A stretch of DNA of 26,769 bases from a virus (taxonomy: Duplodnaviria; Caudoviricetes). The stretch lies in the IMG/VR virus record IMGVR_UViG_3300031248_000009, positions 1-26,769 of that record; one strand, written 5' to 3'. The first letter of the stretch is position 1; every line of letters begins with the position of its first letter. A program made the translations under genes and the position numbers. Shown one piece after another: positions 4,266 through 25,550 of the stretch. The notes under the pieces are model-generated. The model searched no databases and was not told the origin of the DNA. It saw only the letters and a program-made list of their open reading frames with translations.

Positions 4266-4268
4266 GGT

Positions 4269-4838: not shown

Positions 4839-4923
4839 TGCGGCTCGTCGATTCGAGCCGTCCGGGAAGCGTGTTCACGCTAGGAGGAGCGAGGCCGTCC
4901 GCCTCCCGGAGGCCCGAAGCCGA

Positions 4924-5430: not shown

Positions 5431-5470
5431 TGTGGTACTCCTTTCAAAGTGGGCCTCATACCCAGCCCGG

Positions 5471-5495
5471 AAAATGCGGGGCGGTTAAGCCCCGC
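5471..5495 (-). terminator. Probable intrinsic terminator after the major capsid gene
   Basis: Minus strand GCGGGGC-TTAACC-GCCCCGC followed by ATTTT; the short U tract suggests partial read-through. Confidence 0.7.
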
Positions 5496-5520
5496 GGTTC
5501 GTTACACCTTCACGTCAAGA

Positions 5521-6384: not shown

Positions 6385-6606
6385 GGCGGCTATCTCCGCA
6401 AAAAAGTTGAACATCAACCATTTGCGGGTTGTGCCGCCATTTAGCCGAGGACCTGACGATCCCCAGGGGCCGGCGGGCCCGTCTTACCGTGCGACGTGCT
6501 GTTTTACGCCCTGCGCTTCGCCTTCGGGCGGGGGACCGGTCTCCCGGTTGTGCCCCAGTGCTAGTGCCTCTGGCGCGCGGCCCCTACTACGGGTTGTGCG
6601 CGCGCC
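6383..6606 (-). promoter_or_regulatory. Structured 5' leader of the capsid gene with three ACAA-bulged hairpins
   Basis: Three GCACAACC copies (plus-strand GGTTGTGC at 6427-6434, 6546-6553, 6592-6599), each inside an inverted repeat; the last one pairs the capsid start codon. Confidence 0.65.
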
Positions 6607-6618
6607 TTGGGCGGGATT

Positions 6619-7593
6619 CTACGCCGCTTTTCGCTTTTGTGAAGCGGCCCGTGCTTCGTGGTGCCGCTGCACCTTCGCCACGGTCGCCTTGTGGCGTGGA
6701 TCTTCCTTGTTCCAATAGGGCGAGTCTTCCTTGCCCGGTGCCCCGCGCATGAGCTGGTCGAGCGACTCCGAATCGAGGATCGCATCGGGGTGCACGCCGG
6801 GATCTTCCTGCAGCTCGGCGCCGACTTTGGCGAGGATGCGGACCACCGCCGGGATGTTGCCGATCCGGTCGATTAGGTCCATGTCGTTCTGGTCCGCATA
6901 GGCCGAGAACGCCTGGTAGGCGAGCTTCACATGCCGCTGCAGCTCAGGCTCGGACTTGTAGTAGCCGAGCAGCTCGATCTTCGCCTTCTCGGTCGAGAAC
7001 GCCTGCGTTTGGTTCGCGAGCGAAGCCATGTGCTCGAAATACAGGTTCATCGCCCCTTCGTACTGCTTCTGGGTGAAACCGAGTTCGAGCGCCTTCGTGC
7101 GGAATGCCTTGTTGAGGCCCGGATCAAGGTCGATGCCGGCTTCCTTCATCTCCTTCGGAACCTCGAACTTGTAGGCGTCCGCCGTCTCAGGCGGCAGACC
7201 CACGTCGCGCATGCGCTGCTCAAGCGCCTGAGTAGACTTCGCCCAGGCGTCCACGTTGATCTCGCCTTTTTCCGCGTTCCAGTACTTCGCCGGGATGTTC
7301 TTGGGCCGGCGCGTATCCTTCTCGGCCGCCTGCAGCGCGCGCGCATCGGGCGAAAGGTTGTCGGTCCCTTGGCTGCCCTTCGTCGTGTCGTCACCACCAC
7401 CGCCAGCCGCGGTGTCCTGGCCGCCGCCTTTGCCGATGTCTTCGAGCAGCGTCTTGCCAGCGCCGCCCTTGTCAGCGCCCGCGACCGTATCTTGGTCTTT
7501 GCCGCCGGCTGTGGTGTCCGCTCCACCGCCTACCGCCGCTGTGTCGCCAGCCTCGACCTGATACCCGGTACCCAAGAGCTTCTCAATTCTCAT
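6619..7593 (-). CDS. Capsid scaffolding/assembly protein
   Basis: Low-complexity G/D/T N-terminus, PPETADAYKFEVP motif, ELGFTQKQYEG, PYWNKEDPRHKATVAKV C-terminus; directly upstream of the capsid gene. Confidence 0.8.
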   Translation of the reverse strand: MRIEKLLGTGYQVEAGDTAAVGGGADTTAGGKDQDTVAGADKGGAGKTLLEDIGKGGGQDTAAGGGGDDTTKGSQGTDNLSPDARALQAAEKDTRRPKNIPAKYWNAEKGEINVDAWAKSTQALEQRMRDVGLPPETADAYKFEVPKEMKEAGIDLDPGLNKAFRTKALELGFTQKQYEGAMNLYFEHMASLANQTQAFSTEKAKIELLGYYKSEPELQRHVKLAYQAFSAYADQNDMDLIDRIGNIPAVVRILAKVGAELQEDPGVHPDAILDSESLDQLMRGAPGKEDSPYWNKEDPRHKATVAKVQRHHEARAASQKRKAA

Positions 7594-7822
7594 CGCCGCC
7601 TCCTATTTGCTGGCCGATCCGGGCCAGGATGAACTCGATGACTTCCTTTTGCGCCGCCCTGCGTTCGGTCTCGCGTTGGCCCTCGACCCCGCCGGGCTTG
7701 TAGACGTGCCGGTCGTGAAAGCGCGCCGCCAGGTCTTCGAGCACGGCCTGCCCCGGTTTGAAGCCCTCGAAGGTGGCCACGTAGTCCTCTGGCGTCGCGA
7801 GCGGCTTCGCTTTCTCAGGCAT
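7583..7822 (-). CDS. Small Bbp19-like phage protein
   Basis: YVATFEGFKPGQAVLEDLAARF...AAQKEVIEFILARI pattern; this family normally sits between portal and scaffold. Confidence 0.7.
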   Translation of the reverse strand: MPEKAKPLATPEDYVATFEGFKPGQAVLEDLAARFHDRHVYKPGGVEGQRETERRAAQKEVIEFILARIGQQIGGGDEN

Positions 7823-8294
7823 GCGCGGCCACCATCACCTTTGGGACATACGGGTCGCCTTGGGCCTCGCGCACCACGATGTAGAGACACTTAACCAGCT
7901 CGTCCAGCCGGCAGAACCAGTTATCCCAGCGGTTTCCTGCTATTGAGCAATGCATGTAATGCGTTGTGAGCAGCCGCCCGGTCACGTCGCATACCTGGGT
8001 AGCCTCGACAGGCGCTTCGCCCAGGGCGCCATCGTAGAGCGACACGTCGCCCACGAAGAACTTGTCCGGTTCGAGCGCCTTGCGGTTCCTGATCGCCGGC
8101 CGGAACTTGGGGGTGAGCAGTTTGCCGGTGAGCTTGAGCATCACCATCTCGACGGCCTGCACCACGTCGAGCACGTCGTCGTAGACCACGTAGAAGATTT
8201 TCCCGTTCGCCTGGATCTCGCCGCGGCCGTGTGCCAGTCGCATCGATTCGATGATGCGGCGGTGCGCAATCTCCAGCGACGTGAGCGGCTCCAT
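7815..8294 (-). CDS. Hypothetical protein, 159 aa
   Basis: Start re-placed at ATG 8294 (TGATG coupling), MEPLTSLEIAHRRII...; protein-like composition, no recognised family. Confidence 0.6.
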   Translation of the reverse strand: MEPLTSLEIAHRRIIESMRLAHGRGEIQANGKIFYVVYDDVLDVVQAVEMVMLKLTGKLLTPKFRPAIRNRKALEPDKFFVGDVSLYDGALGEAPVEATQVCDVTGRLLTTHYMHCSIAGNRWDNWFCRLDELVKCLYIVVREAQGDPYVPKVMVAAHA

Positions 8295-8557
8295 CAGTGC
8301 ACTCTTGGCCTGACCGCTGCCCGCGCCTTTGTCGCTCGCTTCTTGAAGATCCGCAAAGCAATGAGTGCGTGCCGCTCGTCGCGCTTGGCGATCTGACGAA
8401 TGCGCCGAAGTTGCCGCCACTCGTGCGGCTCAAGGCGAATCGGGCTCTGGTCGTGGGAGAACGCTTTCGAGATGTCGGTGAGTTCGATGACGATTGCAGG
8501 GGGAGGCGGTGCCCCTGCCCCCGAGCCCTGCCACCAGCTGAAAAGCGCCGTGCTCAT
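8294..8557 (-). CDS. Hypothetical protein, 87 aa, basic C-terminus
   Basis: Coupled to both neighbours (ATGA and TGATG overlaps). Confidence 0.55.
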   Translation of the reverse strand: MSTALFSWWQGSGAGAPPPPAIVIELTDISKAFSHDQSPIRLEPHEWRQLRRIRQIAKRDERHALIALRIFKKRATKARAAVRPRVH

Positions 8558-9543
8558 GCCGGGTCCATCGAGGCAATCGCGTCGCGCGAGACGGTCGTCA
8601 CCGCGCCAGTCCAGGCTGGCGTCACGTCGTCTTCGGCGTAGACCGTGATCGTGTACGGCGAGGCTGCGCCCGTAATCTCGACCTTGTTGCGGCTGTAGCG
8701 CAGGGCGTCTTTCACGGTGCGTCCGCCATCGGCAGTTCCGGCGATCGAGCGCCCGAGGAGTTTGTCAGCGACGGCAGCGTGCTCAGCAACCGTGAGCGCG
8801 TAACCCGTCTTACTGCCAGCGGCCACCACTACGCCAGAAGTCCCGGTGTCGTCGAGAATCGCAGCAATGCTAGCGTTGTCGGGGGCGGTGTAGGCTGCGC
8901 TCGACAGGCGCGTCGAAACGGCCACATCAAGGTTCCCAAGATCGCCAACGACCGCCACATCGCCGCCGAACGTACCGCCAGTGACGTGCCCGGCGACAGC
9001 TTCATCCCATACCGCGTCGGCTATTTCCGCTGCGGCATCGGCTGCCAGCGCGTCGGCGTCGATCGCGCCGGTCGCAATTGCGGCAGCGTCAATGGCCCCG
9101 GCAGCAAACGTGGCTGCATCAATTGCTCCGTCCGCAATGGCAGCGGCATTGATTGCCCCGGCCCCGAACGTCCCGGCAACAATCAGCCCTGCAGTGATCT
9201 CGTTCGTATGCACCTGAAGCGCGTCCGACCCTGAGACCAGCGCGTCGTAGACGTTCGCTGGCAGCACCGTGAAGTGCATCCAGACTGGAAGGTGGGTCGC
9301 TGCGTCGTGAACCTTGACCGTCAGATCGCCGAGCGTGTTCGTGTGGGTCGTCGTCAGCGCGATCGGATACCAGCCGTCTGAATCAAGCGTCCCGAGTACA
9401 GGCCCGGCGCCGAACGCAGCGCCCGCCTTGCTGATTTCCGTTCCGGCCCCTGCGAGTCCCGCTTCCTCGGTCACGCCATCGGTCTTGTCGAGGAACGGCC
9501 CGAGCAGCACCGTAACTGCCGTCGATTGCTTCAGGACTCTCAT
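8554..9543 (-). CDS. Putative virion structural/fibre protein with Ala-rich 10-aa repeats
   Basis: Repeats AGAINAAAIA/DGAIDAATFA/AGAIDAAAIA/TGAIDADALA followed by EIADAVWDE; ATGA-coupled. Confidence 0.65.
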   Translation of the reverse strand: MRVLKQSTAVTVLLGPFLDKTDGVTEEAGLAGAGTEISKAGAAFGAGPVLGTLDSDGWYPIALTTTHTNTLGDLTVKVHDAATHLPVWMHFTVLPANVYDALVSGSDALQVHTNEITAGLIVAGTFGAGAINAAAIADGAIDAATFAAGAIDAAAIATGAIDADALAADAAAEIADAVWDEAVAGHVTGGTFGGDVAVVGDLGNLDVAVSTRLSSAAYTAPDNASIAAILDDTGTSGVVVAAGSKTGYALTVAEHAAVADKLLGRSIAGTADGGRTVKDALRYSRNKVEITGAASPYTITVYAEDDVTPAWTGAVTTVSRDAIASMDPA

Positions 9544-10472
9544 GTCCTACGCCTCGCGTAAGTGGGCATCAATACGGGAACACTTGTCGCGGGCGTGTAA
9601 ATGATGATGATGACTCCGGCTCCGCCGCCTCCGCCCACGTTGCCGCCACCACCGCCACCACCGCCGACCGCCCCTGCGCCGCCAGTGTCGCCAGCGTCAG
9701 TATCGCCACCACCACCGCCACCGCCAGGGCCGCCAACGGCGCCGCCCACCGTAGCGGTGTATTGGTCCCAGCTCGCGCCTGCGCCACCGTTAGCGCCTGT
9801 TGCAGCCGCACCAGCACCGCCGCCACCGGTGCCGGCGACGCCGGCGGCCCCAGCCGTAGCACCGCCACCTGTTCCGTTGTTACCTGCGCCGCCTGGGCCG
9901 AAGGTCGTCGTGCCAGCGCCGCCGTTGGTGGACGAGCCGCCTGCCGCGCCGCCGCCCCCGCCCTGCGCGTCAGCACCCGCCGCGGTGTGGTCGCCGTCGC
10001 CGCCTGTTCTACTGACGAGCGCAGTTCCATCAGAGGCATACGACGAAGCACTCCCACCGCCCGCGTTGGTCAGGATCGTGGTGTCGCCGGTGCCGCCGTT
10101 GCCGCCGACTTGCTGCGTGCCCGAGCCGCCCGTGGCGATGCCGCCCGCGCCCCCGGTAACGCTGGTTGCGCCAGAGCCGCCTTTCGCGCCAGCCGAGGCC
10201 GCGCCGACGCTTGCACCGTTGAAGTAAGTGTCCCCGCCGTTGCCGCCTACCGCACCGGCTGCGCCGACTGCGAATGTGATGTTCCCGGAGAGCGTGATGT
10301 TCGCTGCGGTAGCAGAACCACCGCCACCACCACCACCAGCTCCGGCCGCAGCGCCGCCCGATCTGCCGCCCCCACCGCCGCCGATGCAGATCACGCGATT
10401 GTTCGCGTTATTCCAGTCAGCCGGGGTCGGCCAGGGCGAACTGTCGGCTACCTTGAGGATGACAATCGTCAT
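9540..10472 (-). CDS. Glycine-rich fibre/adhesin-like protein, 310 aa
   Basis: Start re-placed at ATG 10472 (ATGA overlap with the portal stop). VICIGGGGGG...VGAAGA...GGDTYF...GAGVIIIIY is the pattern of phage glycine-rich domains. Confidence 0.75.
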   Translation of the reverse strand: MTIVILKVADSSPWPTPADWNNANNRVICIGGGGGGRSGGAAAGAGGGGGGGSATAANITLSGNITFAVGAAGAVGGNGGDTYFNGASVGAASAGAKGGSGATSVTGGAGGIATGGSGTQQVGGNGGTGDTTILTNAGGGSASSYASDGTALVSRTGGDGDHTAAGADAQGGGGGAAGGSSTNGGAGTTTFGPGGAGNNGTGGGATAGAAGVAGTGGGGAGAAATGANGGAGASWDQYTATVGGAVGGPGGGGGGGDTDAGDTGGAGAVGGGGGGGGNVGGGGGAGVIIIIYTPATSVPVLMPTYARRRT

Positions 10473-12082
10473 GCCGGCAGAGCAGCAGCGACACCTGCTG
10501 GCGCACCAGCGGCCTGAGCAGCCATGCTGGCGATCTGCATCGCCTGCGCCTGCTGGCCGCGCTTCTCGCGAAGCGTCTCGATGTCGTCTTTGTCCGGGAT
10601 CAGCTTCGCGGGGACTCCGAGCAGCTCCGCGCGCATCCGTGCAGCTTCGTCCCAATCGTAGTTATCGAGCACCGACTCACCGAGGATCGCGGCTTCCTGC
10701 GCAAGCGAAGCCTCAAACCGATCCATCGCCGCAACATCGACCGCCTTCTGCGCCCGCGCAATCGGCGAGACGTACCGGACGGACAGCACCCGCGTCATGA
10801 GCGAGCGCGGCGGCGGCGAGAACACGCCTGCACGGTAGGCAATCCCGAAGCAGCGCGTCACGAGCCACTGCAGGAATTCCGACTGCATGCGGCCATACAC
10901 GGGCCCGAGGAGCTGTCGGATCATCTCGACGCGCACCACGATCTCGGTTGCAGTGGGCGGCTCTCCGGCTTTCTTCTGCGGCTCGAGCTGGTCGGCCATC
11001 AGCACCTTGCGGATCGAGCGCTGCAGCCGGTCGATCTCAAGAAGCGCCGCCTTGAAGTCCCCGCCTGGCGTGAGCGGCCAGAAGTTTTCCTTCTCGGCCA
11101 TCACGATCACCTTGCGCGGGCCGATCTTGATCGAGCGCGCGTTGAGCACCCCATCGTCAACCGCGCCCCACATCCCGGCTACGGCCAGATCCATGTTCGC
11201 GAGGTCGTACTTCACAACTTCGTTCAGCGTCTTCAGATCCGGTAGCGCCTCCTTCACCGGCCCGAAGGCGTACACCGACCCTGGCACCGGGCTCCACCGC
11301 GGGACACCGACCGGCAGCTCGTGGTAGCCCGACTCACGCACAACCTTCTTCGTCTGGCATTCGATGTGCGTCGAGGCGAACGGAAGGTTCTTCGAGAAGC
11401 GCCCAGGTGTTCCTGAGCGCGGATAGACGCAGCGGACGAACTGCACCACTTCGTCGGGCTTCTCGGACGCCTGCTTTCGCACCTGCTCGGAGAGCATTTC
11501 TTCACCGTAGTCGTGCACGGCCTGCTCGGCCGAGAGCGGGAACTCGTTGAAGACCGTATCGACCGGGCCGCCTGGCATCGAAGCGGCGAAGTAGGTATTC
11601 GCGAGCGACCACGATTCGAACCGGAAGCCCCCGCCTTCGGCTTCCTCGACGAACATCGGGAACATGCCAGCGGCAGCCATGTCGAGCATGCACTCGAAAC
11701 CCACCGCGTCGTAGTTCGAGGCGTGGATGTTCTCCCACAGCATCTGCGCGGACTCGTCCAGCCAGCGTTTTTCCTCGTCCGTTTCGTTCCCGGCGTCCAG
11801 ACCGAACCAGCGGGAGTTGGCCGGCGTCAGACCAGACATGAGAGCCGATGCGAGGATGCGTACGCTATCGGTGCCGGTTGAGTCGAGCAGCTCGTCCTGC
11901 TTCGTGGTGCCGCTTGAGACGTGCTGCTGCGTTGGATCAGGTGAAGGCGAACCGAGCGATTCGAACGCTGCGCCCCTCAAGGGGTACGTGTAGTTGAAGC
12001 ACTGGCGCCACTCTTCCTCGACGACGGAGCGCCGCGCCCGGAGCTGCTCCAGGCGCTTCAGGAGCTTCGCGCCGTCGATCAT
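10469..12082 (-). CDS. Portal protein (head-tail connector, T7 gp8-like), 537 aa
   Basis: LLDSTGTDSVRILASALMSGLTPANSRWF, ESGYHELP..VPRW, TATEIVVR...LGPVYGRMQSEFL, YVSPIARAQ. Confidence 0.95.
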   Translation of the reverse strand: MIDGAKLLKRLEQLRARRSVVEEEWRQCFNYTYPLRGAAFESLGSPSPDPTQQHVSSGTTKQDELLDSTGTDSVRILASALMSGLTPANSRWFGLDAGNETDEEKRWLDESAQMLWENIHASNYDAVGFECMLDMAAAGMFPMFVEEAEGGGFRFESWSLANTYFAASMPGGPVDTVFNEFPLSAEQAVHDYGEEMLSEQVRKQASEKPDEVVQFVRCVYPRSGTPGRFSKNLPFASTHIECQTKKVVRESGYHELPVGVPRWSPVPGSVYAFGPVKEALPDLKTLNEVVKYDLANMDLAVAGMWGAVDDGVLNARSIKIGPRKVIVMAEKENFWPLTPGGDFKAALLEIDRLQRSIRKVLMADQLEPQKKAGEPPTATEIVVRVEMIRQLLGPVYGRMQSEFLQWLVTRCFGIAYRAGVFSPPPRSLMTRVLSVRYVSPIARAQKAVDVAAMDRFEASLAQEAAILGESVLDNYDWDEAARMRAELLGVPAKLIPDKDDIETLREKRGQQAQAMQIASMAAQAAGAPAGVAAALPA

Positions 12083-14977: not shown

Positions 14978-15762
14978 ATCGCCACCCGTTTCGGAAATTC
15001 ACGCTGCTGCGGTTGCTGCTGTGCAACGCGGCCGGCCCGGTCCTGCGTCCTCGAAAACCAGTTGACCAGGAATCGCTCCCAGTTCGACTTCCGGTTCGCG
15101 GGGTTCGCCGCGGCCCAGGCGGCTGCGCGCTCGATTTCAGGTGGGATCGGAACGGCCGGGTAAGCCTCCTGCCAGCGCAGCTCGTCTGCCTCGGTGATGC
15201 CTGAGAATTTCCCTGCCTCGAAGTCGAATCGAATCCGCTTTGCGGGCACCTTCGACGGCCCACGGCGCGAAGCGTCGGGGGCAAGTGAAGTTGAATCAGG
15301 ATTCAGAGAATCAGGATTCAGAGAATCAGGGGGTTGCGACCCCCTCTTTATGACACCATCTTTCTCGGAATTCGGCCTTGATGCTGATGCGATCTTCTCT
15401 GGGAAAGACAGAACAGCATCAACAGAGTTTTCTTGGAGTGGCGGCGGCTTTATGACGCTAGGTTTCTCGGAATAGTGCGGTGTTTGATGGGTTGAAAACT
15501 TGGAAATCTGGATGAATGATCCGTCCGAATTCTTGTAGCGCACCAAGAATCCGCGCGCTTGAAGCTCATCCAGCAACGGGTCAACGTCCTGCGAATCGAA
15601 TGGCAGGAGTTCGCCCTTGATGCGCTTCGGACGATCCTCGAGACGCCCTTCCCTGTCGGCTAGCATCCAGAGCCCAGGGAAGATGAGCCGCGCCCAGACC
15701 GAGCACTCGGCCAGATCCTCGTTCTTGTAGAACCCAGGCTTGATGTTCCTGGCTCTAGCCAT
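14974..15762 (-). CDS. Phage replication initiator (lambda O-like role)
   Basis: MARARNIKPGFYKNEDL...GLWMLADREGRLEDRP N-terminal domain, low-complexity linker with DNA repeats, C-terminal WAAANP..RKSNWERFLVNW domain. Confidence 0.8.
   Translation of the reverse strand: MARARNIKPGFYKNEDLAECSVWARLIFPGLWMLADREGRLEDRPKRIKGELLPFDSQDVDPLLDELQARGFLVRYKNSDGSFIQISKFSTHQTPHYSEKPSVIKPPPLQENSVDAVLSFPEKIASASRPNSEKDGVIKRGSQPPDSLNPDSLNPDSTSLAPDASRRGPSKVPAKRIRFDFEAGKFSGITEADELRWQEAYPAVPIPPEIERAAAWAAANPANRKSNWERFLVNWFSRTQDRAGRVAQQQPQQREFPKRVAI
15293..15473. repeat. Repeats within the initiator gene, candidate origin
   Basis: 15-bp GAATCAGGATTCAGA x2.5 (15293-15330); 26-bp CTTTATGAC-N6-TTTCTCGGAAT at 15346-15371 and 15448-15473; locally lower GC. 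Confidence 0.6.
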
Positions 15763-17441
15763 CAGGCCGCGACCTCCAGCGATGCCTGTTCGAACTGCGC
15801 CCGCGCAATGGCCGCTGCGAGTGGCGGGCAGACGGAGTTGCCGACCATCCTCACCTGAGCGTCCTTCGCCAGGCGCTTGCCTTCGACGATGATGTCGATC
15901 AGGTAACTGTCGGGGAACCCTTGCGCTCGGAACAACTCGCGCGGCGCGAGCATCCGCATGCCGATGTCGGCAATGACATAAGGCGTGCCATGCACCGTCA
16001 CCACGCCGCAGCGATCTACCGTCGAGAGCGTTGGCACCGGCTCATCGCAGCGGCTGCCCTGGCCGCCTGATCGCACGCCGGAGTAGTACCCAAGCAGAAA
16101 GGCGCGCACCTCGGCGTAGTGATTGCCGCCCGCCTGAACGGTGTGCAGCGGCAGGCCGAGCTGTTGGCCGTCGCGCGCCGTGCCCTTGAGCTTCACCAGG
16201 CTCGATGCGACGAGCGCATGGTGGTCGCGCGTGGTGACAGTGTCGAAGGCCGTGCAGATAGGAGAGCCCGGCGTCTCGTGCCCGCCGTAGTGCTTGGCGA
16301 GGAACGCGGCGACGAGGGCGTGCTTCTGCCCGCCACCGACCACGGTCCCGAGGGGCTTGTCGAGCCCCGGCACGCGCGGCGCCTGGCCCGGCCGCTCGCC
16401 ATAGCCGGTGGTGATGAGCGTGGGCGCGATGAGCGCGAAGTCCTTTGAAGCCGGTACGGTAGGCACCGGCTCTGAGATCGAATGCTCGCCGTGACCCCAG
16501 CGCTTTGAGCCGTTCAGGCCGCTATCGGCATGCGCGGTGCGCGCAAGGTATGGTGTGACGAGCGAGTATTTAGGATCTGCCGTCAGCGTGCGCAGGGGCT
16601 CCTGCGTGCTATGCGCGCGGTCGCGACCGCCACCCCAGTACGGCATGATGAACGGCTGCGGGTTGTCGATGACGAACTTCTTCAGCCCGCGCGCGATGCG
16701 CCTCTCGGTGTTCTCGGCAAGCGGACGCTTGACGCGATGCTGCCGCGCTTCGTCCTTCGTCAGGAAGATCGAATAGGTCGGCAGGCTCCATTCGATGCAC
16801 TCCGCCGCCGCGCGCCACGGCTCGCGGCCCTTGCCGTGTGTCGGTTTCGGCCAGACGATCGGCAGGCCGTCGCGCCGCGCGACGAGGAACAGGCGCTTGC
16901 GCGTGGTCGGAGCGCCGTAGTCCGCGGCAATCAGCTCGCGCCACTCGACCGCATAGCCGAGCGCGCGGAGTTTGCCGACCCAGATGCGGAACGTGAGCCC
17001 GACGCGCTGCGGGCACGGCCGGTTGTTCTCCAGCAGCGGACCCCAGTCCTCGAACTCCTCGACGTTCTCCAGGCAGATGACGCGCGGGCGGACGAGCTTC
17101 GCCCACCGGACCACCACCCAGGCGAGCGCGCGGATCTTCTTCTCGACAGGCTTGCCGCCCTTCGCCTTGCTGAAGTGTTTGCAGTCCGGGCTAAACCACG
17201 CGAGCCCGATCGGGCGCCCGCGGCAGGCTTCGCGCGGATCGACCTTCCACACGTCCTCGCAGTAGTGCCGCGTCGCCGGATGGTTCGCCTGGTGCATGGC
17301 GATCGCCTCGGCGTCGTGGTTGATCGCCACGTCGGGCGAGCGGCCGAGTGCCAGTTCGATGCCGAGGGACGCGCCTCCGCCGCCAGCGAAATTGTCGACA
17401 ATCAGTTCGTCGGCGTAGATGCGAAGCGCCGGCGCCCTCAC
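15762..17441 (-). CDS. C5 cytosine DNA methyltransferase, 559 aa
   Basis: Motif I DNFAGGGG, motif IV FSPDCKHFS, motif VI LENVEEF, motif VIII YGAPTTRKRLF, motifs IX/X RELFRAQGFP...GNSVCP. Confidence 0.95.
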   Translation of the reverse strand: MRAPALRIYADELIVDNFAGGGGASLGIELALGRSPDVAINHDAEAIAMHQANHPATRHYCEDVWKVDPREACRGRPIGLAWFSPDCKHFSKAKGGKPVEKKIRALAWVVVRWAKLVRPRVICLENVEEFEDWGPLLENNRPCPQRVGLTFRIWVGKLRALGYAVEWRELIAADYGAPTTRKRLFLVARRDGLPIVWPKPTHGKGREPWRAAAECIEWSLPTYSIFLTKDEARQHRVKRPLAENTERRIARGLKKFVIDNPQPFIMPYWGGGRDRAHSTQEPLRTLTADPKYSLVTPYLARTAHADSGLNGSKRWGHGEHSISEPVPTVPASKDFALIAPTLITTGYGERPGQAPRVPGLDKPLGTVVGGGQKHALVAAFLAKHYGGHETPGSPICTAFDTVTTRDHHALVASSLVKLKGTARDGQQLGLPLHTVQAGGNHYAEVRAFLLGYYSGVRSGGQGSRCDEPVPTLSTVDRCGVVTVHGTPYVIADIGMRMLAPRELFRAQGFPDSYLIDIIVEGKRLAKDAQVRMVGNSVCPPLAAAIARAQFEQASLEVAA

Positions 17442-18765: not shown

Positions 18766-18966
18766 TCATGCCGCAGCTCGCGCCTCGCGCAAGGAGTCTG
18801 GAAGATCGGCCCTCAGAACACCCGAGGACGCGACCTCGTACAGCACCTGCTGGTCCAGCGGGATAACCCGGCCCTTCCAGCGATGCACGGTCTGTCTCGG
18901 AACGCCAATCGCAACCCCTGCCTTCGGCTCATTGCCGTAGTGGGAGATCAGTTCGTCGTAGGTCAC
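18766..18966 (-). CDS. cro: Cro-like repressor
   Basis: ELISHYG...GVAIGVPRQTVHRW..VIP..QQ..YEVASSGVLRAD; divergent from the repressor gene. Confidence 0.85.
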   Translation of the reverse strand: MTYDELISHYGNEPKAGVAIGVPRQTVHRWKGRVIPLDQQVLYEVASSGVLRADLPDSLREARAAA

Positions 18967-18973
18967 GGGCCGA

Positions 18974-19015
18974 ATCGTAAATGAGTATTTACGGTTCTGT
19001 CAATCCCTGTTTACG
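18974..19015 (-). promoter_or_regulatory. PR-like promoter with two 18-bp operators
   Basis: Minus strand TTGACA (19003-18998)-18 nt-TACGAT (18979-18974). Operators CGTAAATACTCATTTACG (18976-18993) and CGTAAACAGGGATTGACA (18998-19015), read on the minus strand. Confidence 0.8.
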
Positions 19016-19504: not shown

Positions 19505-19729
19505 ATGAGCTGGCTCGAAAGGTACGAAGCGCTAATTCGGCTCGTGTTCCGCGGCTCCGTCATCAGCCTGCTCGCGCTGTGCTGGTGGGAATTGCACGAG
19601 ATCGAGCGCCAGACACATCCAGTTTCTCTGCGCACTGTCGAGCAGGAACTAGATCGCATTCAGCGCGACGTAGAGAAAATCAAGGAGTCATCTGAATCGA
19701 CCGCATACTTCGTTCGTCGGCCGCGCTGA
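19505..19729 (+). CDS. Small membrane-anchored coiled-coil protein in the immunity region
   Basis: Hydrophobic LVFRGSVISLLALCWW then a heptad-like segment; SD GAGG upstream. Confidence 0.6.
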   Translation: MSWLERYEALIRLVFRGSVISLLALCWWELHEIERQTHPVSLRTVEQELDRIQRDVEKIKESSESTAYFVRRPR

Positions 19730-19995
19730 TCCTCCTTGCCATCGTCGCTTCATTTTTCGCGGAAGCTGGAACCGAACGCACACGCCAAGTGCGCGCAGCG
19801 TTCGTGAAATTACACCCCTGCCCCACCACCAACAAGCCCCGCGGCGCCTGCCCTGGCTACGTCGTCGACCACGTCGTGCCGCTGTGTGCCGGCGGCGCTG
19901 ATCACCCATCGAACCTGCAATGGCAGACGGTTGCCGACGCCAAGGTGAAGGACCGCGCCGAGCGCGCGCAGTGCCGCAGTAAGCCCATCAGGTAG
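19696..19995 (+). CDS. HNH endonuclease-like protein, start uncertain (ATC 19696 or GTG 19789)
   Basis: HPCP....GACPGYVVDHVVPLCAGGADHPSNLQWQT..DAKVKD; the frame is open upstream to a TGA at 19693. Confidence 0.75.
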   Translation: MDRILRSSAALILLAIVASFFAEAGTERTRQVRAAFVKLHPCPTTNKPRGACPGYVVDHVVPLCAGGADHPSNLQWQTVADAKVKDRAERAQCRSKPIR

Positions 19996-20039: not shown

Positions 20040-20080
20040 CGTAAATACTCGTTGACAATACGTAAACACTCGTTTACGCT
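20040..20080 (+). promoter_or_regulatory. PL-like early promoter with two 18-bp operators
   Basis: TTGACA (20052-20057)-17 nt-TACGCT (20075-20080), overlapped by CGTAAATACTCGTTGACA (20040-20057) and CGTAAACACTCGTTTACG (20061-20078). Confidence 0.85.
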
Positions 20081-20115: not shown

Positions 20116-20529
20116 ATGGCAAAAGCAGCGACGAAGGCGAAGCAACCCGAAGTCACCACGATCACCCTGCCCGAGCTTGCGAATGGCGAGGTCTACGCAG
20201 GGATCATCCTCGAGAACGGTAAGCCCTCGCACCACCTGATTCTGCTGCCGGGTGAGGCCGAGCGCGTCACCTGGTCGCAGGCGAAGGAGTGGGCGACCAA
20301 GCAGGGCGGTGAGCTTCCGAGCCGTCGCGAGCAGTCGCTTCTCTTCGCGAACGCGAAGGACGAATTCAATCCCGAGTGGTACTGGAGCGCAGAGCATCCC
20401 TCCGTTAGCAGCGTCTATGCCTGGTTTCAGTTCTTCACCAACGGCTACCAGACCTGGGGCCACAAGCGCAGCAACTACCGGGCGCGCGCGGTCCGCAGAT
20501 CAGTAATTCAGTCATTTGATCCGTCATGA
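20116..20529 (+). CDS. DGR target protein 1 (DUF1566/C-type-lectin-like), 137 aa
   Basis: SD GGAGG; TW..AKEWA...GGELPSRRE, WYWS, AW, RARAVRR motifs; contains VR1. Confidence 0.9.
   Translation: MAKAATKAKQPEVTTITLPELANGEVYAGIILENGKPSHHLILLPGEAERVTWSQAKEWATKQGGELPSRREQSLLFANAKDEFNPEWYWSAEHPSVSSVYAWFQFFTNGYQTWGHKRSNYRARAVRRSVIQSFDPS
20394..20500 (+). repeat. DGR variable repeat VR1
   Basis: Ungapped 107-bp match to the TR with 17 mismatches by manual count: 16 at TR adenines and one G>T at 20405. Confidence 0.95.
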
Positions 20530-20810
20530 GCGACGCCATGATGGCTACGTTCGACGCCGCGCTGGATCGCATCGTCGGCATCAAGGGGCCGGAAGCACTG
20601 TCCGACTACCGCAAGCAGCGCGCCGAGCAGGACGCGCACCGGGCGAAGCTGATCGAGGAGATCAGGCGCCGCGGCCTCGACGCGATGGATCACGTCGTCG
20701 AGATCGTGCGCGCGCCGCTCATCTCGCGCTGGGACATCGAGCAGGCGATCAAGGAACTGCAGAAAGCCCTGCCTGCCGCCACCGAACTCGACCCTCCGGA
20801 GGCAGCGTGA
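20526..20810 (+). CDS. Hypothetical protein, 94 aa
   Basis: ATGA-coupled to target 1. Confidence 0.65.
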   Translation: MSDAMMATFDAALDRIVGIKGPEALSDYRKQRAEQDAHRAKLIEEIRRRGLDAMDHVVEIVRAPLISRWDIEQAIKELQKALPAATELDPPEAA

Positions 20811-21193
20811 ACCCGCGCGACATACCAGGTCCCGGTGACTACGAGCGCTTCCCAGTGACTGACTCACGCGACCCGCGCTACGTGCCAACGCCAGCGAGCG
20901 AGGACGAGGTTTCCGAATTCGCGGCCGAGCTTCAGTTCGATGCGTTCCTCGCGTCGCAGGATAAGTTCGACGAGTCCATGATCTGCAACGGTGAGGTCGA
21001 GGACGTGTACCCGCACCTTCGGAAAGCGCTGCTCTCCGTGAACAACAAGGGACGCTGGGCGAACTCAGGCTGGATTCACGAGGCTGTCGGCCACCTGGAG
21101 CGCGCACTGAAGGCGCTGAAGAAGCGCAACACCGACATGCTCGACGCCGAGTACGTCGACGCGGCCAGAGCAGAACTGGACGCAGACCTATGA
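20807..21193 (+). CDS. Hypothetical acidic protein, 128 aa
   Basis: GTG 20807 (GTGA overlap, GGAGG upstream): MNPRDIPGPGD... Confidence 0.65.
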   Translation: MNPRDIPGPGDYERFPVTDSRDPRYVPTPASEDEVSEFAAELQFDAFLASQDKFDESMICNGEVEDVYPHLRKALLSVNNKGRWANSGWIHEAVGHLERALKALKKRNTDMLDAEYVDAARAELDADL

Positions 21194-21378
21194 CGCGCGA
21201 TCCCTACACCGGGCAGCAGTTGCGCTTCCTGCGCACCCTGCCGCGCCACGAGCCGATCTCGGGGCCGTGGATTGGCGAGTCCAAGACGCACCGCGGCGAC
21301 CTGTGGGTTGCGATTGGTGCCATCGTCGCGACCTTTCTGATCGCCACGTCCGAATGGCTCGGCTGGCCGATGCCATGA
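21190..21378 (+). CDS. 62-aa protein with a C-terminal transmembrane segment
   Basis: LWVAIGAIVATFLIA; ATGA overlaps on both sides. Confidence 0.6.
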   Translation: MTRDPYTGQQLRFLRTLPRHEPISGPWIGESKTHRGDLWVAIGAIVATFLIATSEWLGWPMP

Positions 21379-22397
21379 ACGCGCCCGAGAGAATCATCGA
21401 CCGGCGCACCTTCCTCGGCGGCTCCGACGTGGCGGCCGTGTTGGGCCTGTCGCCGTGGGCCACTCCCCTGGACATCTACCTGCGGAAGACCGGGCAGATG
21501 CCGGAGACGGGGCGCGAGTCCGATCCGCAGCGCGAGCGGGTGCTCAAGCGCGGCAAGCGCTTGGAACCCATCGTCGTGGACATGCTGATCGAGGAGCACG
21601 GCATCCAGGTCACGAAGCGAAGCCTCCCCGAAGCACCGAACCGCTACGTGGACCCGGAGTATGGGTTCCTCGCGGCCGAGATCGATTTTGAGTGGAAGGT
21701 CACGCCCGAGGTTGCCGACGCCTTCAACCTGGACGCGGATCTCATCGGCACGATCCAGAACGGGGAAGTGAAGACCGTCCATCCGTTCGCCGCCGGCAAG
21801 TTCGGAGAAGCGGACACCGACGAGATCCCTATCGAGTACGCAGCGCAAGCTATGCACGGCCTCATGGTGTCCGGGCGTCAGCTCACGATGTTCGGCGTGC
21901 TCGTGGGCGCCGACAACCTAAACGTCTACTGGATCAAGCGCGACGAGGAAACGATTACCGGAATGCGCGATAAGTCCGTGCGCTTCTGGCTCGATCACGT
22001 CGAGGCGGGTGTGCCGCCGGCGCCAGCGAACCTGCCGGACGTGATGCACCTGTTCAATCGCAAGGCCGAGACGCGCATCGAAGCCAACGCCGTGGTCAAG
22101 GATCTGGTCGAGCAGCTCGTCGGCTTGAGCGCAGCGCAGGCAACGGCTGCGCAAGGGATCGAGGAAGTCAAGTTCCAGATCGGCACCTACATGCTTGGCG
22201 CAGAGCAGATGGCCGCTCCGTCGAAGCCAGGCCGGCACTTGCTGACCTACCAGGGCAAGGAGCTGCTGACGGTAGCGCTCCAGTCGCAGTCGCGGCTCGA
22301 TCAGAAGGCGCTGAAGGAAAAGCACCCAGAGATCGCCGCCGAGTGCATGAAGACCGCGTCGTTTTTCGCATTCCGACCGAAGAGAGGAAAGCAATGA
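21375..22397 (+). CDS. YqaJ/lambda-exonuclease family recombination nuclease
   Basis: Start ATG 21375. RRTFLGGSDVAAVLGLSPW.TPLDIYLRKTG, RGKRLEP, AEID, EVKT, IPIEYAAQ. Confidence 0.9.
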   Translation: MNAPERIIDRRTFLGGSDVAAVLGLSPWATPLDIYLRKTGQMPETGRESDPQRERVLKRGKRLEPIVVDMLIEEHGIQVTKRSLPEAPNRYVDPEYGFLAAEIDFEWKVTPEVADAFNLDADLIGTIQNGEVKTVHPFAAGKFGEADTDEIPIEYAAQAMHGLMVSGRQLTMFGVLVGADNLNVYWIKRDEETITGMRDKSVRFWLDHVEAGVPPAPANLPDVMHLFNRKAETRIEANAVVKDLVEQLVGLSAAQATAAQGIEEVKFQIGTYMLGAEQMAAPSKPGRHLLTYQGKELLTVALQSQSRLDQKALKEKHPEIAAECMKTASFFAFRPKRGKQ

Positions 22398-23407
22398 ACC
22401 AGCAAGCCGAATCGACCGTAATTGAACGCGAGATCCCGATGTCGCAGACCGACATGGGCGTGCTCGCGGTGATCTCGAAAGCCGAGATTGACGTGCAGAT
22501 CGCCACCGCGCACCGCTTCCCGAGGTCCGTGAAGGGTTTCAGGGACGAGGCGCTCGCGATGGTGACGTTGACCGAAGAGATCGCCGAGGAGTGCATCTAC
22601 GCACTTCCGCGGGACGGCAAGACCATCGAGGGGCCGAGCGCGCGCTTTGCCGAAGTGGTGGCCTCGGCCTGGGGGAACTCCAGGGCCGGCGCGCGCGTGG
22701 TGGACGAGTCGGGCGACTTCGTGACCGCGCAAGGGATCTTCCACGATCTGCAGAAGAACGTTGCCATCACCTACGAGGTCAAGCGCCGCATCGTGGACTC
22801 GAAAGGCCGGCGCTACAAGCCCGACATGATCGGCGTGACGGCGAATGCGGCCTGCTCGATTGCGCTGCGTAACGCCATCCTGAAGGGCGTACCGAAGGCG
22901 TTTTGGTCCGACATCTACGAAGCGGCCAGGAAGACCGTCATGGGCGACTACCAGACGCTCGCCAATCGGCGCGCCGCGGCACTCGCCATGTTCCAGAAGT
23001 ACGGCGTGCTGCCCGAGCGCGTATTCGAGAAGCTCGGCGTGCGCGGTGAAGAGGACATCACGCTCGAGCACCTGGTCGTGCTGCGGGGGCTGCTGACGGC
23101 GCTGAAGGAAGGCGACACTACGGTCGAGGAGTCTTTCCCCACGCCGCAGCAGCCGACCGATCGCAGTGCCTCGGCCAACCTGAAAAGCGCCGTGACTGGC
23201 GCGAAGCCTGCATCGGAGAAGCAACCGCCTGCAGATCCAGCGCCGCAATCCTCCACCACGGTGATCGACCACATCGCGAAGCTCGACGAGCTGGCGACGC
23301 TGGAAGAGATCGAGGAATACGCGGCCGGCCTGCACGAAACCGTTCGCGCCGATGAGCGCTTCGCGAAGGCGGTCAAGCGCAGGCTCGATTCGTTCAAGAA
23401 GAAGTGA
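22394..23407 (+). CDS. Putative single-strand annealing/recombination protein
   Basis: Start ATG 22394. AEIDVQIATAHRFPRS...IYALPR.GKTIEGPSARFAE...WGN; coupled to the exonuclease. Function inferred from synteny. Confidence 0.6.
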   Translation: MNQQAESTVIEREIPMSQTDMGVLAVISKAEIDVQIATAHRFPRSVKGFRDEALAMVTLTEEIAEECIYALPRDGKTIEGPSARFAEVVASAWGNSRAGARVVDESGDFVTAQGIFHDLQKNVAITYEVKRRIVDSKGRRYKPDMIGVTANAACSIALRNAILKGVPKAFWSDIYEAARKTVMGDYQTLANRRAAALAMFQKYGVLPERVFEKLGVRGEEDITLEHLVVLRGLLTALKEGDTTVEESFPTPQQPTDRSASANLKSAVTGAKPASEKQPPADPAPQSSTTVIDHIAKLDELATLEEIEEYAAGLHETVRADERFAKAVKRRLDSFKKK

Positions 23408-23423
23408 CCACGAGGAGACAACC

Positions 23424-23804
23424 ATGAATGCACCTGTAGAGAGTATCGCTGTGCCGGCCATCGGCGCCGAGTGGGAAGGCGGCATCTACGCCGGGCTCAC
23501 GTTGCACGACAACACGCCGATGCACCTGATCCTGTTGCCGGGTGACGAAGGCGGCCTGACGTGGAAGAAGGCGATGGCGTGGGCTGAGAAGAAGGGCGGT
23601 GTCCTGCCGTCTCGGATCGACCAGCTCGTGTTGTGGCAGAACCAGCGCGACCAGTTCAAGGACTCCTGGTACTGGAGCGGTGAGCATCGCTCCGGTGGCA
23701 GCGCCTGTGCCTGGTTTCAGGACTTCAGCTACGGCTACCAGACCTGGCTCCGCAAGCTCAGCAGCTACCGGGCGCGCGCGGTCCGCAGATTGCCTATTCA
23801 GTAA
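23424..23804 (+). CDS. DGR target protein 2 (DUF1566/C-type-lectin-like), 126 aa
   Basis: ATG 23424 with SD GAGGAG; paralogue of target 1 (YAG, HLILLPG, TW..A..WA...GG.LPSR, WYWS, RARAVRR); contains VR2. Confidence 0.9.
   Translation: MNAPVESIAVPAIGAEWEGGIYAGLTLHDNTPMHLILLPGDEGGLTWKKAMAWAEKKGGVLPSRIDQLVLWQNQRDQFKDSWYWSGEHRSGGSACAWFQDFSYGYQTWLRKLSSYRARAVRRLPIQ
23684..23790 (+). repeat. DGR variable repeat VR2
   Basis: Ungapped 107-bp match to the TR with 20 mismatches by manual count, all at TR adenines. Confidence 0.95.
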
Positions 23805-23818
23805 TTCGGTGATTTGAA

Positions 23819-24175
23819 GTGGCCTTGCATCAAGAGCTGCCGATCTACAAGGTCGCCTACGACCTTCTGGCGCTCGTCACGAACGCGCGGCGGAACATGC
23901 CGCGCGACGTGAAGCAGGATCTCGGCAAGGCCATTTCGAAGGAATGCGTGCGCGTCGTGGTGCTGATCTTCCGGGCCAACGTCGCGCACGAGAAGGCCCC
24001 GCATCTTCTTGAGATCGTGGAGCGGATCGAGGTCGTGAACCTGCTCCTGCGCCTTTCTCGCGACCTTCGATTTATTCCGACCAAGCAGTACGGCGCCGCC
24101 ATCGCCCTGACGACCTCCATCGGGAAGCAGGCGAACGGCTGGCGCAGACACTCCGCATCGACGCCTGCTACATGA
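23819..24175 (+). CDS. avd: DGR accessory variability determinant (four-helix bundle)
   Basis: HQELPIYKVAYDL...MPRDVKQDLG...LRLSRDLRFI...IGKQANGW; basic, 118 aa, between target and TR/RT. Confidence 0.9.
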   Translation: MALHQELPIYKVAYDLLALVTNARRNMPRDVKQDLGKAISKECVRVVVLIFRANVAHEKAPHLLEIVERIEVVNLLLRLSRDLRFIPTKQYGAAIALTTSIGKQANGWRRHSASTPAT

Positions 24176-24339
24176 CGGTCAAGGCCGCCCTGTCCGTGCG
24201 TAATTTCATCTGGTCGTGCCGCTCGCTCACGAGGCGACCGCCATGCGCGTAACGGATACCGCTCGGCAAGCCGAGGAACGGTCCGGCGCAGTTTCCCCGC
24301 TGAGGATTCGGCGGGGTGACGTGGATAGCTCGATTGACC
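24176..24339 (+). ncRNA. Structured 5' part of the DGR template RNA (avd-TR spacer)
   Basis: Hairpins at about 24212-24239, 24253-24285 and 24295-24316 (CCCCGCTGA-GGAT-TCGGCGGGG). Confidence 0.6.
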
Positions 24340-25550
24340 GCATCACTCCGGTAACAGCGACTATGCCTGGAATCAGAACTTCAACAACGGCAACCAGACC
24401 TGGAACCACAAGAACAACAACAACCGGGCGCGCGCGGTCCGCAAATGGAAACGATGCAGGGTTCACCTTTCAGGATCTCGTCGTAGCGTATTTCGATTGC
24501 CGGCGCACGAAGAGGAACACCGCAAGCGCCCTCGCCTTCGAACAGGATCTGGAGCGCAACCTCGCCGAGCTGCACGAAAGTATCGAGGACCGCAGCTACC
24601 AGCCTGGACGCTCGATCTGCTTCGTCATCACCAGGCCCAAGCCTCGGGAGGTCTGGGCGGCCGGATTCCGCGACCGCGTGGTCCACCATCTGCTCTACAA
24701 CCGCATCGGCCCGATATTCGAACGATCGTTCGTTGCGGACTCCTGCGCCTGCATCAAGGGGCGCGGGACGCTCTACGCGGCGACTCGAATGGAAGCGAAG
24801 ATCCGCTCGATCACCCAGAACTGGTCGCGGCGCGCGTTCTACCTCAAGTGCGACCTGGCGAACTTCTTCGTCAGCATCGATAAGCGCATCCTCTTCGACC
24901 TGATCACGCGCAAGGTGAGTGACCCCGCGTCGCTGTGGCTTGCCGAGACGATCCTCTTTCACGACCCGCGACCTGGTGCGCAGGTTCAGGGGTCGCCTTC
25001 GAAGTTCGCGCTGATCCCGCCGCACAAGAGCCTCTTCAACCAGTCCCCGGACTTCGGGCTTCCGATCGGGAACCTCGGCTCGCAGTTCTTCGCGAACGTG
25101 TATCTCGACGAGTTGGACCAGTTCGTCAAGCACCGGCTCGGCTGCCGGCATTACGTCCGGTACGTCGATGACTTCATCCTCCTGCACGAGTCGCAGCAGC
25201 AGTTGAGCGCCTGGCTGTCCGAGATCCGCAACTTCCTGCCGGCTCGCCTCGGGTTGAAGTTGAACGACTCGAAAACGATCCTGCAGCCGATCGACCGTGG
25301 CGTCGATGTCGTCGGCCAGGTGGTGAAGCCCTGGCGCCGGACGCTACGCCGCAGGACATTCAACGATGCGATGCGCAGGATGGGCGTGGTGCCGGACGAA
25401 GAGACGTTCACGTCCGCCAACAGCTACTTTGGCCTCTTGCGCCAGACGAGCAGGAGCCACGCGGACAGGGCGCAGCTCGCGAAGGTCGTGATGCACCGCG
25501 GGCACGTCGTCGATGGCCGCTTCACGAAGGCATTCCGGAGATCAGCATGA
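24216..25550 (+). CDS. DGR reverse transcriptase (true start uncertain)
   Basis: KPREVWAAGFRDRVVHH, LKCDLANFFVSI, GLPIGNLGSQFFANVYLD (the SQ motif characteristic of DGR RTs), YVRYVDDF catalytic motif. Confidence 0.95.
   Translation: MPLAHEATAMRVTDTARQAEERSGAVSPLRIRRGDVDSSIDRITPVTATMPGIRTSTTATRPGTTRTTTTGRARSANGNDAGFTFQDLVVAYFDCRRTKRNTASALAFEQDLERNLAELHESIEDRSYQPGRSICFVITRPKPREVWAAGFRDRVVHHLLYNRIGPIFERSFVADSCACIKGRGTLYAATRMEAKIRSITQNWSRRAFYLKCDLANFFVSIDKRILFDLITRKVSDPASLWLAETILFHDPRPGAQVQGSPSKFALIPPHKSLFNQSPDFGLPIGNLGSQFFANVYLDELDQFVKHRLGCRHYVRYVDDFILLHESQQQLSAWLSEIRNFLPARLGLKLNDSKTILQPIDRGVDVVGQVVKPWRRTLRRRTFNDAMRRMGVVPDEETFTSANSYFGLLRQTSRSHADRAQLAKVVMHRGHVVDGRFTKAFRRSA
24340..24446 (+). repeat. 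DGR template repeat (TR)
   Basis: 36 adenines, with 10 AAC and 1 AAT codons in the target reading frame; ends in the G/C-only 14-mer CCGGGCGCGCGCGG (24424-24437) shared with both VRs. Confidence 0.95.

Follow-up and report, generated by a model that had tools for sequence, protein, structure and literature searches.

One of the questions raised by diversity-generating retroelements (DGRs) in phages is what a virus gains by rewriting one of its own proteins. The usual reading of phage DGRs is that they switch receptors. What, then, is to be made of a DGR whose targets are two small proteins of the early arm, and how does such an element prime its mutagenic cDNA when its structured RNA lies in front of the template rather than behind it? 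Both questions are posed by a stretch of 26,769 nucleotides from a temperate tailed phage of soil (Caudoviricetes; IMG/VR record IMGVR_UViG_3300031248_000009), here called the window, to which all positions refer and whose record is about 66% complete. The DGR that it carries is almost certainly real and active. On balance we lean to a reading in which one template rewrites the tips of two early lectin-fold proteins, likely to be intracellular binders of fast-changing proteins of the host or of rival prophages. The intracellular role is what we infer for these targets, and counter-defence is put forward as a hypothesis.

The cassette has the order target 2, avd, template repeat (TR) and reverse transcriptase (RT), with target 1 lying 3.3 kb upstream and a variable repeat (VR) in each target:

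20116-20529, + strand: target 1, 137 amino acids (aa), a single C-type-lectin-fold domain (predicted local distance difference test, pLDDT, 92 in the model), first gene of the early operon
20394-20500, + strand: VR1, including the core of the initiation of mutagenic homing (IMH) site; 16 of 17 mismatches at TR adenines
23424-23804, + strand: target 2, 126 aa, a single C-type-lectin-fold domain, its subtype old and distinct from that of target 1
23684-23790, + strand: VR2, with the IMH core; its 20 mismatches all face TR adenines
23819-24175, + strand: avd, 118 aa (PF22296, E = 4e-12; phrog_3206, E = 4e-32)
24340-24450, + strand: TR with IMH*, from the TR-VR alignment (TR proper 24340-24446)
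24243-25550, + strand: DGR RT, 435 aa from a likely ATG within the RT-15 RNA, by profile matches and frame analysis

The TR is 107 bp long with 36 adenines and aligns to VR1 and VR2 without gaps, the concentration of mismatches at template adenines having a binomial P of 3e-7 for VR1 and 3e-10 for VR2. An earlier reading of the sequence alone (the original prediction) had described an avd-TR-RT element with two ungapped VRs and the same mismatch counts, which are reproduced here; its list of DGR genes and repeats stands, whereas it missed the RT-15 RNA, the pairing of the TR end and the RT frame through the TR. A scan of both strands of the window gave no further VR. With 22 adenine-containing codons, the TR has a coding capacity of about 6e20 possible protein variants. 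Avd scores 47 bits against PF22296, above the cut-off of 40, and 56.9 bits against NF033474, under its 80-bit cut-off. The RT matches phrog_1423 (E = 8e-114) and contains YVDD together with IGNLGSQ, which we take to be the GxxxSQ motif.

Variation of the VRs in a related genome, to which the original prediction had tied the question of activity, is seen in a strain about 92% identical to the window phage, from a 2025 run of a separate study (X6). This strain shows 246 differences over 3.2 kb, is divergent across VR1, and has contigs that break at VR2. Its TR differs from that of the window at four non-adenine positions, 24343, 24385, 24388 and 24399; X6 VR1 has the changes at 24385 and 24388 and X6 VR2 those at 24343 and 24399. 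Since adenine mutagenesis of the old template cannot yield these changes, both VRs were re-templated in at least one lineage after the strains split, and the element is active. The remaining visible differences between VR and TR in X6 all face adenines (12 of 12, with 5 in 30 nt of VR1 and 7 in 52 nt of VR2), in a comparison made by eye over the 82 nt visible, two differences in each X6 template contig being unlisted. In X1 and X4, which are among four 2019 soil runs that are possibly the source of this DNA, there are 0 differences in both VRs; contigs lose rare variants, so that within-population variation is invisible there. The listed runs with this DNA include no RNA dataset.

How might the cDNA be primed? 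Directly 5' of the TR lies a structured RNA of the RT-15 family (Rfam RF03018), which aligns to model positions 1-192 of 192, above the gathering score of 82 bits, and whose 3' end falls at the TR start; it occupies the same place in 9 of 9 related loci tested.

24159-24340, + strand: RT-15 structured RNA, covariance model score 159.3 bits
24204-24212, + strand: single-stranded linker of RT-15, the predicted primer strand, complementary to 24442-24450

The complement of the linker adjoins G24441, such that G24212 is the predicted priming base and G24441 the predicted first template base. The duplex was tested in fixed register across 132 dereplicated loci, where it contains 1073 Watson-Crick pairs in total against 936 ± 10 in shuffles. 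Pairs 1-5 are Watson-Crick in 94-100% of loci, and pair 7 is paired in 91% (T-A 51, C-G 48, G-C 19) against 36% in shuffles, with a maximum of 49%. On an RT tree of 160 sequences the two sides of pair 7 take 21 and 19 changes when treated separately (sum 40) and 25 when treated jointly, a sign of compensatory change. Pairing drops from 0.90 to 0.29-0.42 when the register is slid, and the flanks of the VRs lose pairs 7-9. The closing stem of RT-15 comes after the linker, with its other strand ending 6 nt before the TR, and in 159 loci only 10-37 nt separate the IMH* anchor from the RT core. Because this order of elements matches that of the primer and stop duplexes of BPP-1, a Bordetella phage, RT-15 can be viewed as a circularly permuted spacer, and the RNA 5' of the TR is probably the equivalent of the BPP-1 spacer.

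Some of the evidence on the duplex pulls the other way. Single-sequence folding does not produce it (pair probabilities <=0.04), nor did the consensus fold yield a duplex between linker and TR end; pairs 6 and 10 are poorly kept, and the window itself has a C-A mismatch at pair 3. An unanchored search for duplexes between RT-15 and downstream sequence did no better than shuffles (22 vs 23), and the duplex site was the commonest in that search (9 of 108), which means that it was picked from the data before the in-register test. The mismatch at pair 3 arises from TR position 24444, which is A in the window and G in 129 of 132 relatives and in both VRs; on this comparison the TR-VR mismatch there is better read as a change on the TR side than as a VR mutation. 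No change is listed at 24444 in the active X6 strain. A literature search that left subscription journals largely uncovered found no 5' priming RNA described, though the supplement of PMC5737381 as well as Fig. S18 with Table S3 of Handa et al. may anticipate part of this.

The position of the RNA has a consequence for the RT. The more likely start of its gene is ATG 24243, which lies inside RT-15 with a GAGG 8 nt upstream, rather than GTG 24216. Among 167 unique loci, 155 have an in-frame start at the 24243 position, which in 151 is an ATG, and the window has no in-frame start in the interval from the TR to the RT core. The linker from IMH* to the core comes in 10 lengths, all in one phase (159 of 159), and from that ATG RT-15 and the TR would encode the RT N-terminus in the +1 frame. 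The related Burkholderia phage Magia (MT701587) has its RT annotated from the equivalent ATG. The phase conservation, the conserved ATG and the Magia annotation make it likely that the template itself encodes a Thr-rich N-terminus of the RT. Against this, an open frame alone proves nothing, since brt of BPP-1 has an ATG of its own and yet its frame stays open over the 233 codons upstream (L246, 2743-3407), through spacer, TR and avd.

What marks the VRs as recipients may be a short repeat rather than a hairpin:

20501-20518, + strand: two-unit 8-nt ATTY repeat after the VR1 IMH, a candidate target mark from a repeat scan
23796-23815, + strand: three-unit 8-nt ATTY repeat after the VR2 IMH, the only three-unit match in the window

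A three-unit repeat of this kind occurs in 78 of 142 VR flanks, mostly 8-9 nt past the IMH core, against none in 68 TR flanks and no more than 1 in shuffles, which makes it a candidate target-marking element. A hairpin after the IMH was rejected, with z of 0.21 and -0.03 in the window and z<-2 in 5 of 142 flanks.

When are the targets made? The answer is suggested by operators shared with the repressor region:

18766-18966, - strand: cro (PF14549), the cI-like repressor, identified by PHROGs, lying on the + strand
18976-19015, no strand assigned: two 18-bp palindromic operator copies in the gap between cro and the cI-like repressor, from a palindrome scan
20040-20080, + strand: two operator copies over a pL-like promoter, from the same kind of scan

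The copies beside cro start at 18976 and 18998 and overlap a leftward promoter, TTGACA-18-TACGAT; those on the pL side start at 20040 and 20061 and overlap TTGACA at 20052, followed after a 17-nt spacer by TACGCT at 20075, each pair thus covering a TTGACA/TACG.T promoter. With <=2 mismatches allowed there are four sites, giving 6 strand matches against 0.19 expected, for a search pattern that was itself derived from one of the sites. The pL -10 element has 3 of 6 consensus matches and was missed by a sigma-70 scan. The operator pair on this side lies 37 bp before target 1; from 20116 through int the + strand genes either touch or overlap one another, and no terminator was found on the + strand. 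As the operator pairs overlap both promoters, target 1 opens an operon that CI likely represses. Such a leading place is shown for the window and, by annotation, for Magia only; when the 160 nt preceding each target start were scanned for promoters, the window and locus L063 alone were flagged. The + strand carries, with the DGR, a YqaJ/RecE exonuclease, an excisionase and an integrase, and the - strand the portal/head-tail connector, capsid, tail-tubular and internal virion genes of a podovirus type. Gene profiles and operators therefore agree with the original prediction, which had set the targets in an early recombination and integration arm on the strand opposite to the virion genes. The operator that the target 1 promoter shares with cI and cro makes early placement well supported, and it can be held with considerable confidence that the targets are early and non-virion. 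Between the repressor and pL (19505-19995) there are a hydrophobic 74-aa open reading frame (ORF) and a 68-aa HNH-like one, which, being upstream of the pL operators, are probably outside pL control; they are possible lysogen-expressed accessory genes.

The original prediction had also proposed a survey of related neighbourhoods, and in it the early placement recurs. Of 504 candidate IMG/VR stretches, 488 encode relatives of the RT, and the best 80 of these (58-66% identity, a redundant set) were surveyed for VRs. They hold 171 VRs in 77 loci, with 2-4 VRs in 69 of the 80; mismatches lie at adenines in 2042 of 2067 cases, and all VRs are on the RT strand and upstream of the RT. The family comprises 1,593 clusters at E<=1e-10, and named genome matches are mostly in Burkholderiales and their relatives. 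Among loci found through the RT and having at least 6 kb upstream, early markers are correctly oriented in 48 of 66 and virion markers lie on the same strand in 0 of 66; for loci found through the target the corresponding figures are 93 of 154 and 0 of 154. In five annotated phages, three of them only to 50 kb, 12 of 12 VRs fall in early genes and none in a virion gene, and remote target copies lie 0.6-2.1 kb from the repressor in all 12 loci that show both.

What kind of protein is being diversified? An AlphaFold model built with 113 sequences shows a single C-type-lectin fold, and the variable codons map to its last strands and loops. The best Foldseek match of the model, which is also the top profile match, is the C-terminal domain (CTD) of Legionella Lcl (E = 7e-4). 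Structure alignment gives Z 12.9 and a root-mean-square deviation (rmsd) of 3.9 over 113 aligned residues for the Lcl CTD, and Z 13.2 and an rmsd of 2.2 over 101 for the Bdellovibrio fibre tip Bd2740. The targets score only 22.1 and 18 bits against Lcl_C/DUF1566 (PF07603), where the Pfam gathering threshold is 34.9, and for this reason the fold rests on the model: of the C-type-lectin/DUF1566 assignment made in the original prediction, the lectin fold is upheld while the DUF1566 score stays under the cut-off. Searches against Mtd, the viral Foldseek set and the Atlas returned no functionally studied homologue of the targets. The absence of a membrane anchor or stalk, also noted earlier, extends to the family. 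In a set of 190 targets, taken from 81 loci plus 5 phages, lengths have a median of 152 aa, 176 targets are net acidic, none has a lipobox, and the hydrophobic 19-mers present in 5 each lie in an internal strand or behind a mis-called start.

It is at this point that an extracellular role has to be considered, in which the targets would be made early, would travel on the virion or be set free at lysis, and would bind surface glycans or receptors in the manner of Mtd, with an effect on host range or adsorption. The fold family is indeed mostly surface-exposed, as in the Lcl CTD and the Bd2740 fibre tip, a host-range function was suggested by the authors of the Magia announcement (PMC7883833), and Roux et al. 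anticipate a structural role for viral targets that lack annotation (10.1101/2020.04.01.020958, in the part available). We nevertheless consider this role decidedly unlikely: the same genes in the same early position serve phages of myo- (Magia, vB_E192a), sipho- (Haboob, Cruim01) and podo-type (the window), the targets have neither stalk nor anchor, target 1 is the first gene behind a repressed early promoter, and same-strand virion markers are absent from both sets of surveyed loci.

The targets also bear the marks of selection. Their scaffolds are under purifying selection, with a median ratio of nonsynonymous to synonymous substitution rates (dN/dS) of 0.21 and values <1 in 50 of 50 disjoint pairs. 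Template AAC codons have become Tyr in 250 cases against 147 expected, and Cys in 8 against 87 expected, the variable face being rich in Tyr, Gly, Ser and Asp. These figures bear on the suggestion that a permissive accessory region carries the cassette as a passenger, selfish or neutral for the most part, the variable surfaces having no selected ligand. Such a passenger would fit with the lack of a known function for the targets, with the frameshifts found within the VR in some relatives, and with the state of the RT, which among the 154 target-first loci is full in 115, partial in 14 and missing in 25, and is lost or broken in 23 of the 105 that have at least 5 kb downstream (absent 15, partial 8). 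It fits poorly with a scaffold dN/dS of 0.21, a tenfold Cys depletion in the VRs, the persistence of full-length targets after RT loss and the regular placing of remote copies near the repressor in 12 of 12 loci, and is in our view very improbable. Medea1 (L089, 8581-9889) and Aurca01 (L090, 11581-12889) have full-length target pairs placed as in Cruim01 with no RT downstream in the fetched stretches; genes other than avd-TR-RT follow, annotated as RecB-like in Aurca01, and these phages are natural DGR-minus controls. Term searches in the papers on Medea1, Cruim01/Aurca01 and Haboob gave no mention of a DGR, and for Medea1 no virion proteomics was found.

The two targets of the window are 51% identical and represent old and separate subtypes; among 174 targets the nearest neighbour lies in the same locus for only 6. 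Other subtypes are elaborated: one next to avd (L003, 9125-9589, with many relatives) has a conserved amphipathic N-terminal helix of about 30 aa, which may mediate oligomerisation, and another, of about 204 aa, has a large insertion. The window targets have neither. The keeping together of several old subtypes is one point in favour of a role mainly in conflict between phages, where the targets would bind, or sense, proteins of a co-resident prophage or superinfecting phage (repressors, exclusion proteins or prophage-borne defence proteins) rather than core host proteins. The early, signal-less and fast-evolving profile of the targets suits such a role equally well, cytoplasmic C-type-lectin DGR targets have been proposed as antigen sensors in bacteria (PMC10907252, in the part available), and an annotated terminator just upstream of the Magia cassette would allow separate control. 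A CI-type operator, by contrast, would shut target 1 off in the lysogen, the state that calls for exclusion; the targets have no effector domain, either fused or next to them, and neither targets nor neighbours have a match in PADLOC. Overall, a role mainly in phage-phage conflict is unlikely but deserves more weight than either an extracellular or a passenger role. The targets have no match in PADLOC, which covers defence systems, or in NCBIfam, and no anti-defence protein library was searched.

Longer relatives of the targets were considered as a clue to function and dropped. Searches seeking fusions gave 5 and 2 matches, to which the top 150 representatives added an SNF2-like fusion and others; six of eight fusions checked are singletons and one has two members. 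The only well-attested fusion is a tandem two-domain target-like protein of 243-250 aa found in many Janthinobacterium strains (cluster P0127, 23 members), possibly a host-domesticated form.

Binding within the cell remains the reading that we prefer, and a number of considerations count against it. The nearest structures and the longer Lcl_C relatives are surface proteins, almost every fusion to a cytoplasmic-looking domain occurs as a singleton and could be an artefact, and a gut-virome survey has no DGR on known anti-defence genes (10.64898/2026.03.05.709809, in its available part). The codon bias in the VRs could come in part from misincorporation by the RT. Gene position is no proof of absence from virions; the markers were drawn from only 6 phages and 18 of 66 loci have no early marker. 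About one third of the genome is absent from the record, so a tail-fibre VR elsewhere in it is possible. A literature search, again with subscription journals largely uncovered, found no study of the function of these targets, and the class is not covered in the available parts of PMC10053308, PMC8632793 and 10.1101/2024.11.15.621889.

These parts could work together as follows. In the lysogen CI would repress the pL-like promoter; upon infection or induction the targets, avd, RT-15/TR and RT would be made as one transcript, target 1 first, with the RT translated from the ATG inside RT-15 and reading through the TR. RT-Avd would then bind RT-15, whose linker would pair with IMH* and start the cDNA at or close to G24212, G24441 being templated first, until the RT-15 closing stem 6 nt before the TR halts synthesis. 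The arrangement would be that of the BPP-1 spacer moved from 3' to 5' of the template. The cDNA would replace either VR, each marked by its IMH and 8-nt ATTY repeat, and the Tyr/Gly/Ser/Asp-rich face would bind a protein; a protein of defence or regulation that the phage has to disable early is the most plausible partner. A wider claim is put forward tentatively: that in temperate phages of proteobacteria a distinct and compact DGR lineage acts as an intracellular antibody-like library, with several independently diversified C-type-lectin domains that are made first after infection and bind and neutralise defence or regulatory proteins of the host, served by a circularly permuted form of the BPP-1 spacer, which would prime from 5' of the template and encode the RT N-terminus as well.

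Elsewhere in the window, the virion module (1617-12082, -) is of the podovirus type. One of its proteins, at 7583-7822 (-), is Bbp19-like (PF25181, a name that comes from BPP-1), yet the DGR is of another lineage than that of BPP-1 and lies in the early arm. Beside the head-tail connector (8554-10472, -) are two Ala/Gly-rich ORFs of 329 and 310 aa, with one weak PHROG match to a virion structural protein and no similarity to the TR, which are possible fibres or decoration proteins. The virion genes include a GNAT acetyltransferase (1155-1613, -), and the replication arm encodes a C5 cytosine methyltransferase of 559 aa (15762-17441, -).

How does this element compare with those already described? 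The closest is that of Magia, whose RT is 62%, Avd 57% and targets 38-53% identical to those of the window, and which likewise has short lectin-fold targets between repressor and integrase, one of them remote and near the operon start. Unlike the window phage it is a myophage, and three VRs are counted here against two named in its announcement, which describes the short targets, suggests adaptation or host range, and gives no RNA structure, operator, activity or function (PMC7883833). The third Magia target is gene 46 (L084, 32316-32780), annotated as hypothetical, with 11 of 11 mismatches at adenines.

With BPP-1 the window shares the order target-avd-TR-RT, adenine-specific mutagenesis, the C-type-lectin fold and a duplex of about 9 bp beside a template G, followed by a stop duplex. 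In BPP-1 the spacer (Sp) lies 3' of the TR, the primer strand Sp53-56 pairs with TR118-121 and G117 is the first template base, and beyond the primer duplex comes a stop duplex, formed with RNA immediately 5' of the TR (10.1101/2023.10.23.563531, in the part available). The TR:Sp duplex is of equal length, also has a mismatch at position 3, and belongs to an equal order of elements. The differences are as clear. The RT is only 31% identical to brt, and the targets have no significant similarity to Mtd (E>=0.016), a 381-aa tail-fibre tip, where those of the window are early proteins encoded opposite to the virion genes. The structured RNA of BPP-1 is an Sp of about 140-144 nt 3' of the TR, where that of the window is 5', and the GC-rich inverted repeat that BPP-1 requires after the IMH is replaced by an AT-rich 8-nt repeat. 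As a tropism-switching DGR of the BPP-1 type the window element thus departs in target type, in TR-RT spacer RNA and in post-IMH inverted repeat.

The catalogues come nearer. As far as their available parts go, Wu et al. (2018; category d/CLec2) report that about half of the DUF1566 targets are short and DUF1566-only and that about 15% of DGRs have multiple targets (PMC5758913), multi-target DGRs and non-adjacent targets being known from both this source and Roux et al. (10.1101/2020.04.01.020958). In the latter, clade 3/PC_00009 includes reference elements from proteobacterial prophages whose targets are uncharacterised, and viral targets are treated as mostly structural. By their text descriptions these two groups resemble the window in DUF1566-type VR and short targets, while their exemplar, Legionella LdtA, is unlike the window targets in being a surface lipoprotein; neither early-operon placement nor a 5' RNA is described in the portions of the two papers available. 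In the main text of Weinberg et al. (2017) only RT-10 is tied to a DGR, with a link for others speculated (PMC5737381, available in part); the present data connect RT-15 with TR-VR pairs and propose, for its unpaired linker, a pairing partner that lies outside the model. Schillinger et al. (2012), again in the part available, define a DiGReF group 3 in which the TR overlaps the annotated RT ORF and list multi-VR DGRs for Burkholderia, Ralstonia, Collimonas, Sideroxydans and Pseudomonas (PMC3521204). That overlap is an annotation class, whereas phase conservation in the window family indicates real read-through.

With a widespread lineage mutating early proteins that lack an anchor, targeted hypermutation would reach into the arms race within the cell. 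The permuted RNA, if true, would mean that circular permutation is tolerated by the DGR ribonucleoprotein, a point of importance both for mechanism and for the engineering of compact multi-target mutagenesis cassettes, and it is readily testable, given one duplex, one predicted priming base and cultured phages that carry the family. Set against the known systems, the DGR class with several short early targets is common and already catalogued; the RNA anatomy is the new part.

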